Assembly: GCF_006345805.1 (NCBI RefSeq)
Contig: NC_043016.1
Span: 14,446,001-14,510,000, forward strand
Length of the DNA: 64,000 bases
Direction of reading: 5' to 3'
From: Octopus sinensis
Taxonomy: Eukaryota
Shown here: positions 5,520-62,417 of the stretch, piece after piece
Position numbering within the stretch: position 1 is the first letter of the stretch
Layout of the letters: each line of letters begins with the position of its first letter
The notes under the pieces: generated by a model
What the model was told of the DNA's origin: nothing
Database searches by the model: none
Seen by the model: only the letters and a program-made list of their open reading frames with translations
Position numbers and translations under genes: made by a program

Positions 5520-5597
5520 GTTGTCATTATAGTACTCGGAGTTTCGAATGCTGGAGCAAAGAGCTACAATGCATTCTCATTGGCTATTAATGGCAAC
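5520..5597 (-). ncRNA. Hammerhead ribozyme-like motif, core mutated
   Basis: GTTGCCATTAATAG-CCAATGA-GAATGC...GCATTC-GAAAC-TCCGA-GTA-CTATAATGACAAC: stems I-III pair, G5 is A. Confidence 0.6.
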
Positions 5598-6399
5598 AGA
5601 CGCTATGAAAAACTGTTGAATAAAAGGGAAGTTACTCTAATAGATAGAAAAAGATAAAAAATACATGCAATCATATTCTCACAATACATAGACATAAACC
5701 CCCTGCGTTCACATCTGCATACGTACACATTCACACAAACATGTATATGTACATGCTCATACACAAATGCATGTATGTGTGTACTCATACATACATATCC
5801 ACACATACATGCACAGATGTATATGCGTACACAGTTGCGTCTTCATATAAAGATAGGTGTTTATATGCATACATGTAAAATAATACCGATATATTTAGAC
5901 TTTAATACATATAAATATCTATATATATATATATATATATATATATATATAGAAATTGGATGCATAGCATTAGTGTGCTTCAACAAAGGAGCACAATTGA
6001 GAGAAAGGCAGGGATATAAAAGAAATGAGACATAGCTGAGTTGATATTGTCTTATGATGCTTATGGAGGATGTCTGTTTGGTAAAATAGCTGGAAATCCA
6101 AGTGGAGGGCATGAAAAGAAGCAGTGAAAGGTGATTGCAGTAAAGGAAGAGATGTTAAGCTGGAGGAAACTCATGCAATTCTTTCAAGCATCAAATTATG
6201 TTGATAATGCATAACTCACTGCATAATATTAATTAGCGCTTATCCACAGACATCCTGTCACAGAATTTTAGTTAATTAGTATGTGAGAGGACATAGTATA
6301 TGCTTGTAAATTTATTTAAACTCGTCCATAAGTACATTGTTTCATACACAGACACGGGGTATGAGAGGACATAGTAAGTCAATAAGACAACTCGGATCT

Positions 6400-7337
6400 A
6401 GCAAAAACCAAATGTATTTAATAAAATTTCGCAGACAAGTTGTTGATAATCTTTCTTCTAAGATTATTCTGTGAGTCCACCTTCAGCTGCGACGATTGTT
6501 TCAATGCAGAACCAGAATAGTTGACAAACCTACACTAAATAGCTTTTACTTCACACCTGGATAATGACAGCCTTCAGGGGAGCTATGGTCTTGTGATGAT
6601 GTTGATTAGTCTCCCTTCAAAAAACACTCCAAACGTAGTAGTCCAAGTTTGGTGTTGGATTGTCATAAAAATTCTAAGATCCTGTGGAAAGATGGGAATT
6701 GGCATGATATGACCTTCTTTACTCACCATTCCTAAAGCCATCAGAAGCATCTGTACATAGCCATCTCTCATTTCTCTTGTTAGATTTCGGGTCTTGGTTG
6801 AAGAGTTTTTCCCATCAGAGAACCAAAGCATGCCATGTTTGTGAGGGGTTTTAAACATTGTTAAGCAACTGCTTGGCAGGGATCAAATGGGTTTCTGTGT
6901 CTTTGCGGAATTGGTCCCTCCTCAATACAAACGACTTGTATTGAATGTCCGCATGCACCATAATTCTGACAGTCCACTCTGATACCAGAAGTTCTATGGT
7001 GATGGCCCTTATTGATTTTCTGGGATCCATATCAATAAGGTTGGATGAGTTGCTGTTTCCTGATAGTTCTTTGAGAATGAAGTGTATCAAAGAGTGGGAG
7101 GTAAAACCCCTAAACATTCTCACGAGAGGCTTCCAATTCCATCTGAACTTTGTAAACCAAAGATCTTGCAACATATAAAATGTTGTCAATTTTCTAAATT
7201 GTTGTTTCCCAAATACACACACATGGCAATAATGACTTTCGTTTCTTGTACTTTGTCTGCCATAGGGAAATCCTTTTAATTGGTTTGAAGAGAGTAATGT
7301 ACTGAGAATTGTCCACAAATACCACCTATACCCTGCA
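6400..7337 (-). mobile_element. Decayed Tc1/mariner-superfamily (maT/DD37D-like) transposase
   Basis: WFSDGKN, MALGMVSKEGHIMPIPIFPQDLRI and LDYYVW-like segments; internal deletion. Confidence 0.7.
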
Positions 7338-7637
7338 TATATATGTATGTGTTTGTGTATCTATAAGGGGATGCTGAGAATTTCCTGTTTTTGGGTAAAA
7401 GAAAATACAGGATCACTTAATTATGATTTTATTCAACATATTCCCCCCTCAGATTCACCTACTTATTGCTGTAGTTCTTCAGTTTTTCTAAGCTCTGTGA
7501 AAGAACTTGGAAGGTTGGGCCTCCAACCAGGCCTTTTGTGGTACCCTTAAAGCGAGGTATTTTTCAGCACCACCTCGTGTATGTATATACATACATACAG
7601 ACAGATATTGACTTCATTCCATTCATTTATTTTTCAG

Positions 7638-7708
7638 GTAAATGATTGTCTGGACCACACTACATCAATTATTGATGGAACCTCTTTAACAGATGCTATG
7701 CACCATCG
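7638..7708 (+). CDS. CLUH: CLUH exon (VNDCLDHTTSIIDGTSLTDAMHHR)
   Basis: TTTCAG acceptor, GTATGT donor, phase 0/2; start of CLU-central domain (DG.sL...mH.RG). Confidence 0.93.
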
Positions 7709-8267
7709 GTATGTACCAGTTTTATTTATTACTTTATTATATTATCACTGTAACTCTCAACATTCCACTCTTATTTTGCTTGATTTTTATTTTTCCATGT
7801 TTCAATGCAATTAGGTCTTTGCACCTTTGGAATTTACTTCAGTATATACTTTTGCACCTGTGCTGAAATAATCAGATCATCATCAGTTGGTGATATTTGG
7901 GTCATTAGTCCAGCTCATTTGGTTGAATGGTGGAAGTTGTAGGCTATTGGCATAAGTCAGAAATTAAAATGATGAAAAGCTGGGTTTTTTTTTTTTTGTT
8001 GTTGTAGGGGAGCTGCATGGCTACCCACATATAGGGGAGGGAGTGAGAAATGAATCAGTAGTAGTTGGAGAAAGACAAAAAGTGGTGATAAGGTGTGTAG
8101 GGGCACCATTTAAAGAATTGTTCTTCCTTTCTTTAACCATATTTTTTAACTTCTTTTCATCTTGACACAAATTTTTTAGTTGCAATTTAGTTTAAATGAT
8201 AAAATCTTGTAAACACTGATGGATAAAACGTTTTTGTATGATTTAAATTTTTCACTTTGTTTTACAG

Positions 8268-59889: not shown

Positions 59890-60590
59890 TCTATTGGGTC
59901 TGCGTTGAAACATGAGGCCTAGCATTGTTCTGAAGGATGATGACACTCTTCTGATTGGTCAGTTCTGGACATTTTTCATCAATTGCTTCCTTTAACCGAG
60001 AAGAATAATTGTCTGAATTCAATTTCTGATTTTTGTGGAAGCTGCTTGTAATACACAATGATCTTCCACTCTCACCACACACACACACACACACACACAC
60101 ACACACGCGCGCGCAGAGCATCACCTTCTGCAGATACTGACCTGCTTTTGATGTGATTTAAAACTTATTCATTTTGTTTCCTTCAGGAACTTTTTAACTC
60201 CACATTGTTGTAAATAATCCATCTTTTACCACTTGATATTATTCTCTTCAAAAATGGATTTTTTTTTGTGTTAGAACAGAGAACCTCAAATGGAAATGCT
60301 GTCTATTAAATTTTTTTGTTAAACTATGAGGTACCTAAACATCAAAGCAATTCATGTATCCAATGCCTTATGAGATATGAGATATGTGGAACATCTCTGT
60401 GATTCGATTTGGTCATCACCCATAACTGTAGGCCTGCTGGAACACTCAGTCTTCCAGATCAAAATCTTCACCCCTAAACCTAGTGGACCACTTACAAGCA
60501 ATTCTCTCAGCTGTAATGCCATCTTCATAAACTGCACATATCTTACTTGCTGTTTGAACAGTGTTGTTTCCTTTCATCTTCCATTTCCAC
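59890..60590 (-). mobile_element. Decayed mariner transposase
   Basis: LQNNARPHVS motif and KW..RF...DFDLED...RP-like segment, interrupted by a (CA)n microsatellite. Confidence 0.75.
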
Positions 60591-61391
60591 TTTTAATGGT
60601 AAAAACAGTAGAAATGAACTGTCCACACAATAATCATACAGGAAGACCTGTTGAAATATCATTTTTCACAAAGTATAAATGTCTTATACCTCTGTACTTT
60701 TCATTGTTCAATACTCCAGGTTGTTCTGTACTTCATTGTTCTGTACTTTATTGTTCTGTACTGTAGGTTGATTCCCTCTGTGTCAATAATTTCCACAACA
60801 AACGGAAATATTTTACAGTGTAGTGTCTTTTTCATCAAAAACCCATTCTCTTCATTCAAATAATCAAAATACATTTGCATGATATATATATGAAGAGAGA
60901 TTCTTCTCAAGCATGACATATTGTCAAAGATCTTGGGTCATATATTAACTCTGTGAGGCCCAATGTTCAAAGGGTGCTTTTTAGGTGCCAGTTATGCAAT
61001 ACCAGCATTAGCCACAACTAAGATTTCACTTGGCCTGACGAGTCTTATCAAGCACAGCAAATCACCAAAGGTCTCTGCCACTTGTCATCATCTGTGTATA
61101 GCCCAACATTCAAAGATCATGCTCCACCACCTTGTTCCATGTCTTTCTGGGTCTACCACTTCCACACAGGTTTCCTCCACAATTAAAGATTGGCACTTTT
61201 TTTACACAGCTGTCCTTGACTTTGAATATATATAACTATGTTAAATTCTCTGTTATACTTTATCGAAACAATACTTTATTTCAAAGAGGCTAACCTGATT
61301 CTTTTCACTGTACAGTTAGAGAATATCATCTTTACAGTTAAAGGAATATTATAAAAATTTTAGGTAATATGGATCCTTTCTTTTATTGCAG

Positions 61392-61564
61392 GCGGGAACC
61401 AGCGTCGCTGATTGAACCTCCAAATTCTAGAACAGATATGCAAAAATACGAAGAAGAACTTAGGAAAATCCAACCAAAAGCTGTTCGCCACTTATTTCTT
61501 ATACGACATGGCCAATATCTTACGAGACAAACTGAAGACTATTTAAATATTTTAACACCTTTAG
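61392..61564 (+). CDS. PGAM5: PGAM5 coding exon 2
   Basis: TGCAG acceptor in phase 2 gives WDRREPASLI...PKAVRHLFLIRHGQY...LTPLG (histidine-phosphatase RHG motif); G|GTTGGT donor; gene continues beyond window. Confidence 0.95.
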
Positions 61565-62382
61565 GTTGGTATCTACTTTTGTTGGTAGTATTTAGTAAGG
61601 GTTTTATGTCCTTTAAAGCATAAGAGAGAAAGAGAGTGAGAGAGATAATGAGTTCTGATTAGTGTGGTTAATTGGTCAGTGTGCAGTTTCAACTTTTGAA
61701 GGGTAACTGGCACTCCATTGGTTACGACGACGACGAGGGTTGCAGTGGATTTGATCAGCGGAACAATCTTCTTGTGAAATTAACATGGAGGTAGCTGAGT
61801 ACTCCATTGGCACCCTTAACACAATTCTCAGGGAGATTAAGCATGACACAGAGTGTGACTAGGCTGGTCCTTTGGAATACGGATGCTACTCACTTTTGCC
61901 AGCTCAATGGACTGCAGCAAAGTGAAATAAAGTGTCTTGCTCAAGGACACAATGTGTCACCAGGAATTGAACTTGCGACCTTTATTATCAATGCCCTAAC
62001 CACTAAGCTACGTGCCTTCTCTGAAAATTAACAATCGACCGCTGATCTATCAACTCTTTCCTGTTCATGCATGTCTTCCCTATCTATATCTTCACCAAAA
62101 CAGTCACTATTTCCATCTATCCTTCCCTCCCCACCCACTGAACATACCATAATACACTGACACCCTACATACACAGCCACATAATTCAAAATTAAATTCT
62201 TGTGGAGATAGGCATGTTTAAATGGGACATGCTTTTGATAGATCTTGATTACCTCTGCAAACATATGTATGTGTAAATTATATATATATATAGTTAATCC
62301 AAACAAGAAAGCACAAAAAAGCACAACAACGCGAGGACGTGGAACAAATATAGTATTATTGGATGCTCAGGAAAGAAGGAGG

Positions 62383-62417
62383 GTTTAACGTTTCGAGCGG
62401 AGCTCTTCGTCGGAAAC
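62383..62417 (-). ncRNA. Very small hammerhead ribozyme-like motif
   Basis: GTTT-CCGACGA-A-GAGC(tcc)GCTC-GAAAC-GTT-AAAC. Confidence 0.55.

Follow-up and report, generated by a model that had tools for sequence, protein, structure and literature searches.

Hammerhead motifs in a 64-kb octopus window as probable decayed ends of Penelope-like elements

What are the eight hammerhead ribozyme motifs scattered over a 64,000-nt stretch of the Octopus sinensis genome (assembly GCF_006345805.1, contig NC_043016.1, positions 14,446,001 to 14,510,000 of the forward strand; hereafter the window), and what brought them there? A first-pass annotation had proposed them as a candidate, largely unannotated retrozyme system dependent on Penelope-like elements (PLEs). 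Following their relatives through the 2.72-Gb assembly, we conclude, with a probability of roughly 85%, that the motifs represent hammerhead-bearing PLE ends (pseudo-long terminal repeats, pLTRs) in short and mostly decayed copies, likely produced when the PLE reverse transcriptase (RT) and endonuclease (EN) copied the last 100–550 bases of uncleaved RNA.

All eight motifs were present in the window at the positions and on the strands first described, and they fell into the six sequence families proposed, with sites 3 and 4 and sites 5 and 7 forming homologous pairs. Site 1 (family C; 5520–5597, minus strand; core CCAATGA) lies in the 3' end of a Hydra-type PLE, truncated on the 5' side (5420–5951, minus). 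Site 2 (family D; 14495–14527, minus) belongs to a head-to-head pair derived from a Neptune-type PLE 3' end (14398–14624, both strands, longer arm minus), where the decayed hammerhead spans about 14482–14535 and carries U3-A8 and U10.1-U11.1; its stem I is gone at the inversion junction and the 15.2-16.2 pair is broken. The two family E motifs are site 3 (37623–37668, minus), in a copy of a Penelope/Poseidon-type PLE 3' end with an inverted partner (37569–37839, minus), and site 4 (37976–38022, plus), in a second copy (37858–38091, plus) with a C-A mismatch in stem III. Site 5 (45526–45611, plus; core CTAAAGA) lies in a Hydra-type PLE 3' end of one family A subfamily (45522–45694, plus). Site 6 (family B; 46272–46322, plus), with a G3-C8 core and stem III AAUAUU, lies in a direct copy (46259–46396, plus) preceded by a 5'-truncated inverted partner (46090–46256, minus) that bears a tail of about 60 nt and lacks the 5' half of the hammerhead. 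Relics of long interspersed nuclear elements, with RT and a PHD-like finger, occur at 46396–47640 and 63271–64000 and truncate the family B copy. Site 7 (family A; 55571–55662, minus; CUGAAGA, U10.1-U11.1, stem III ACGAUCGU) has a single A-C mismatch in stem I and lies in a copy (55446–55677, minus) with a partial inverted partner (55674–55738, plus). This partner arm is interrupted by a degenerate 27-bp minisatellite of about 44 copies (55737–56907). Site 8 (62383–62417, minus; CCGACGA, U4C) is intact for family F and lies in a short copy of about 210 nt (62282–62488, minus) with microsatellites on both sides. Only sites 6 and 8 passed a strict descriptor, so that two of the eight window copies are intact. 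The essential G5 is mutated to A in sites 1 and 5, both of which are predicted from their sequence to be catalytically dead; a change at G5 abolishes hammerhead cleavage (Eckert 2023).

Judged from alignments of the best matches, all six families have as their typical copy a minimal type I hammerhead, and its stem III is palindromic. The consensuses are CUGAAGA with U10.1-U11.1 and stem III ACGAUCGU in family A; GUGAACA with AAUAUU in B; CCGACGA (U4C) with ACUCCGAGU in C; UUGAAAA with a U-U base of stem II (U10.1-U11.1) and ACCGGU in D; CUGAUGA with ACGU in E; and CCGACGA (U4C) with ACGU in F. Complementarity between core positions 3 and 8, which the first-pass annotation had pointed out, is kept in every family by copy counts: C-G in A (27/29), C (23/30), E (25/29), and F (22/23), G-C in B (23/24), and U-A in D (12/16). 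A cross-family table gave a 3-8 pair in 22 of 23 representatives and 88 of 92 stem I pairs against 41 after shuffling; because representatives and anchors were hand-chosen, this comparison is circular and serves as a table only. Single motifs folded weakly better than shuffled sequence (z of −0.2 to −2.7).

The link to PLEs that had been anticipated was borne out by the flanking reading frames, since families A, C, D, and E are joined directly to frames with RT and GIY-YIG endonuclease domains and family F is joined through a sister subfamily. Family E runs upstream into a Penelope/Poseidon-type frame comprising a thumb and a GIY-YIG domain at three loci (L123, L140, L147), of which L123 forms a complete unit of inverted copy, truncated open reading frame (ORF), and family E terminus. 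Family D runs on into the RT and endonuclease of a Neptune-type element: when loci were found by the endonuclease end, the D motif lay about 380 nt beyond it on the same strand in 18 of 30, and the Neptune linker CX2-5CxxC preceded the C-terminal GIY-YIG domain. Family C follows a Hydra-type CxCx5C GIY-YIG frame through a continuous TG-rich 3' untranslated region at 3 of 30 loci (L299, L300, L301), and a fourth of these loci is linked in inverted orientation; the linker reads CSCRDKDLC in L076 and L300. The site-5 subfamily of family A terminates two elements with RT and EN (L291, L278), and motifs related to A end long Hydra-type frames such as P0001 (1,011 aa, DKT-bearing). In 5 of 30 copies the site-7 subfamily stretches further upstream, but no ORF is met. 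Family F proper has a fixed 5' end. Its sister, 72–73% identical, continues upstream and, on the downstream side, passes into the N-terminus of a Neptune element; an F-like motif stands behind the endonuclease of a young Neptune-type family at 30 of 30 loci; a member in this context (L397) shows the DKG motif and the CX2-5CxxC linker. Pfam gave no match for the relic frame at 52494–55189 and only a weak GIY-YIG match for P0001, and these PLEs were typed by motif. The parents of A and C and the relic bearing family G, described below, show DKT, the CxCx5C linker, and, at the C-terminus, a GIY-YIG domain, by which they were assigned to the Hydra type. The Neptune clade name was likewise given by motif, following definitions that we take to be the usual ones.

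A PLE relic had been suspected at 53.6–55.2 kb. It is real and of Hydra type, and it extends from 55189 to 52494 on the minus strand, interrupted by other repeats, with an endonuclease frame at about 53640–54194. Its own decayed hammerhead (about 52606–52695, with the motif at about 52690) is the ninth in the window and defines family G; 15 of 30 related loci show homology to G downstream of their endonuclease. We rejected family A as the terminus of this relic, which carries its own motif. Because the relic has a hammerhead family of its own, it is not shown to have given rise to any one of the eight. Elsewhere in the genome, a very young Neptune-type family (L367–L399) counts at least 81 copies that agree at all of 106 aa, with frames of up to 1,009 aa (for example L397:2667–5693, plus strand, with an upstream pLTR at about 1700). 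Its hammerhead core is CUGUUGA (A6U) in 29 of 30 copies, and this core is expected to impair catalysis. A second young family, of Hydra type (L307–L336, L400–L402), has its own hammerhead, frames of up to about 790 aa, and 94–100% amino acid identity across the top 30 endonuclease matches.

The architecture of the insertions was examined in the best 40 matches per family. An inverted partner accompanied copies of families A–E, lying upstream in 71 of 73 cases and downstream in 2, and none was found among 30 family F copies. The copies span the cleavage site. In each of families A–E the 3' ends fall at two discrete points, mostly one per palindrome arm, so that the tail is on one arm; these points are +38 and +120–145 (A), +90 and +150 (B), +41 and +105 (C), +73 and +108 (D), and +53 and +82 (E). 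In 65 of 71 cases the partner's 5' end precedes the cleavage site by more than 5 nt. We rejected a general start of the inverted arms at the cut site: starts within 10 nt were counted in 0 of 15 partners in A, 0 of 19 in E, 3 of 15 in B (one at +1), and 2 of 14 in D. The 5' end is fixed in family B, which measures about 205 nt and, in 21 of 30 copies, begins 56–57 nt ahead of the cut site; among 7 copies met independently, 6 had their 5' end at query positions 13–19. Hot spots of 5' ends also occur in A, C, E, and F.

These features suggest how the copies may have arisen. Reverse transcription would start at either of two internal sites 40–150 nt beyond the ribozyme, and the complementary DNA (cDNA) would run to a truncation point or to the RNA 5' end, which would yield the fixed 5' ends. 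The palindromes could then represent two cDNAs joined head to head, one with a short end and one with a tail. Selection on the hammerhead fold probably operates in the master elements only, with the 3-8 pair differing between families and the copies decaying neutrally; family B obeys the same insertion rules, with no master found for it.

Comparison with described systems, made with the parts of each publication available to us, supports such a derivation. The pseudo-LTRs of PLEs carry type I minimal motifs, in many sequence families per genome and mostly in single truncated copies, with pairs on opposite strands 100–700 bp apart, U3-A8 cores, and palindromic stem III (Cervera & de la Pena 2014, PMC4209133). 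In all of these respects the octopus copies are alike, whereas G3-C8 (family B) and A6U were not found in the portion of that paper covered, and about 10^5 copies are estimated here against thousands there. Insertions of EN+ PLEs show 5' truncation, an inverted 5' copy, a tail at one end, and (TA)n targets (Craig 2021, PMC8557442), and the octopus insertions agree with these features. According to the same source, the Hydra clade has DKT and CxCx5C motifs, and the octopus element Hydra-1_Obim carries a hammerhead. Families A and C share with these published Hydra hammerheads a stem II with a U-U base and a stem III of the form ACUC-N-GAGU; all Hydra hammerheads tabulated there are C3-G8, and the exact B, D, and F motifs were not found in its supplement. 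For PAc Poseidon in vitro, the tail is set by two internal start sites for RT, the enzyme mainly acts on unprocessed RNA, and an engineered C3G/G8C double mutant restores cleavage partly (Frangieh 2024, PMC11167929). The two 3' ends and the uncleaved template are common to both systems, while family B has G3-C8 naturally and in thousands of copies.

Several points weigh against the derivation from PLE ends. The tails of families A, B, and C are 60–100 nt long here, longer than the published 30–40 nt, and the ends of the direct copies are biased by the selection of best matches. Family F proper and the site-7 subfamily of A are tied to PLEs via sisters only. None of about 45 family B copies, out of more than 5,000, reaches an ORF (30 selected, 7 independent, and 8 in long context), and a Hydra endonuclease found beside B was rejected as its parent, having its own hammerhead and being followed by B in 1 of 30 loci. 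Hammerhead self-cleavage in these families is, moreover, a prediction from sequence.

Among other explanations, chance matches in AT-rich repeats would account for the absence of any window excess with loose descriptors and for the weak folding scores of single motifs. We give this a negligible probability, as the motifs keep family-level integrity, a tuned descriptor found 9 motifs against 0.4 in 600 kb, and the fixed position behind PLE ORFs already refutes it. Non-LTR retrozymes, which form head-to-tail tandem arrays yielding circular RNA (Cervera & de la Pena 2020, PMC7229834; Li 2026, bioRxiv 10.64898/2026.07.22.740005), are likewise non-coding, hammerhead-bearing, and PLE-related, animal retrozymes deriving from PLE ends (Li 2026), and a few direct duplicates exist in families F (L177/L178, L116), B (L045), and E (L145). 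As retrozymes, the motifs would be expressed as tandem transcripts and give small circular RNAs. However, a tandem array occurs at none of the eight window sites, the copies are single or head to head with isolated direct duplicates only among 180 loci, the ribozymes are minimal PLE types, and no back-joint at the cut site appeared in three RNA sequencing runs, a weak negative because ordinary cDNA libraries miss circles. In the absence of tandem arrays and of any sign of circles, the motifs are therefore not regarded as retrozymes, a reading that we consider very unlikely. Slightly less credible still is the idea that the inverted pairs are functional ribozyme dimers, although minimal hammerheads with palindromic stem III are thought to act as dimers. 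Head-to-head palindromes do hold five of the eight motifs (four of seven loci), in keeping with the part of the original description that saw inversions, but their partners are sense and antisense and thus not the two same-sense copies that minimal hammerheads need. Only the palindrome at 37575–38062 has two complete motifs, on opposite strands, and the predicted fold of its transcript is a single sense/antisense hairpin (−303 kcal/mol) in which the motif is buried by pairing; the remaining three palindromes have partners missing half of the motif.

A further alternative concerns family B, and perhaps the short form of F, and is compatible with derivation from PLE ends for the other families: B could be a non-coding mini-PLE of about 205 nt with its own promoter, borrowing PLE enzymes as a parasite in the manner of short interspersed elements. 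We regard this as a serious possibility, if somewhat short of even odds. It is in line with the fixed 5' end, with the lack of an ORF in all contexts examined, with the tail and inverted partner, and with a copy number of at least 5,405, the count of exact genome-wide matches to a 21-mer of B whose core positions 3 and 8 were set to N (0 in the control). Among the first 100 of these matches listed, 92 were G3-C8 and none C3-G8, and all 11 close opposite-strand pairs were head to head. However, a fixed 5' end is equally expected from RT run-off at the 5' end of a master PLE RNA, families A, C, E, and F have 5' hot spots and yet have masters (or sister masters), and the copies examined are few among thousands. 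The RNA evidence, restricted to family B and drawn from the same three runs (a related organism, about 6% of each run), also speaks against independent transcription: B-like reads occurred in both orientations, 87–90% continued into unlike flanks, and neither a pile-up of starts or ends nor, within the limit already given for such libraries, a circle joint at the B cut site was seen. These reads fit read-through of embedded copies; rare short or circular RNAs may exist too.

Eight B copies extending past the tail (L403–L410) sit, with inverted partner and tail, in a non-coding repeat of about 2.3 kb, whose ends we take to be Helitron-like. This repeat was rejected as the parent, as there is no PLE frame in its shared body; tblastn on its context returned only one weak match (E 0.012) and, kilobases away, a distinct Neptune relic. 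Some copies of the repeat hold a further insertion with TAACCC-like repeats. In terms of the original proposal of non-autonomous elements or orphan termini mobilized by PLEs, the evidence supports PLE termini that are mobilized by PLEs and whose 3-8 pair varies between families, and non-autonomous status may apply to family B only, perhaps also to the short F subfamily.

How common are such motifs? First-look searches returned about 950–4,300 candidates per family genome-wide. Loose descriptors at five settings gave no excess in the window over shuffles (1/0.6, 0/0.1, 2/1.5, 0/0.6, and 2/0.4), and an Rfam scan of the window contained no hammerhead model among 62 matches at E≤10. A second descriptor, tuned after the families were known and run on 60 evenly spaced 10-kb stretches, found 9 motifs in these independent 600 kb against 0.4 ± 0.7 in 10 shuffles, and therefore the class is real genome-wide. 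Three of the nine belong to B, E, and F, and six to other families. Family models found 21 matches in 600 kb elsewhere, 0 in reversed-sequence controls, and, at the same threshold, 11 in the window. The density outside the window is thus about 1 per 29 kb instead of the 1 per 8 kb extrapolated earlier, and corresponds to some 10^5 copies genome-wide, a rough estimate from clumped data that includes sister families. The window is about fivefold richer than the genome sample, in part as an effect of seeding the models from it. Besides the six, other hammerhead families were met at L213, L230, L259, L262, L268, L271, L272, L283, and L308, and U3-A8 also occurs in two of them (L259 and L262).

Nor is the class largely unannotated, as had been supposed: minimal hammerheads of PLEs, U3-A8, opposite-strand pairs, and hammerheads of octopus Hydra elements have all been published. 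PLE stumps with hammerheads are ordinary and known, including in octopus, and the remaining interest lies in the orphan family B and in the natural core variants. What PLEs use their hammerheads for has yet to be settled (Craig 2021; Frangieh 2024). That the families keep the 3-8 pair, in three different states, speaks for selection on the active fold. Most copies, meanwhile, probably come from uncleaved RNA, and the spreading Neptune family bears A6U. Natural U3-A8, U10.1-U11.1, and U4C have been reported, as has natural A6C of low activity (Perreault 2011, PMC3088659); the first three are common to both data sets, while the text consulted mentions neither G3-C8 nor A6U. In the literature searched, G3-C8 appeared in engineered uses only and natural A6U did not appear; this coverage is partial, and both may be described already. 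We tentatively propose, at odds of about one in three, that family B is a self-standing mini-PLE of more than 5,400 copies with natural G3-C8, that the youngest Neptune family amplifies with A6U, and that together they provide a natural panel of core variants. If so, the panel of C3-G8, U3-A8, G3-C8, U4C, A6U, and U10.1-U11.1 would test cleavage against retention of the fold, and these variants are ready substrates for testing why PLEs keep hammerheads.

The window as a whole is repeat-rich. The SINE repeats, together with PLE types that match published octopus elements, are in line with an octopus-like genome. Broken frames at 32197–33569 (minus strand) include an integrase zinc-binding domain and resemble an LTR retroelement. 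A long inverted repeat at 45041–45320, with 83-nt arms 92% alike and an AT-rich core, is similar to a miniature inverted-repeat transposable element. Two overlapping frames of 130–150 aa at 30549–31080, the scanned one of which had no Pfam match, are possibly a host exon.

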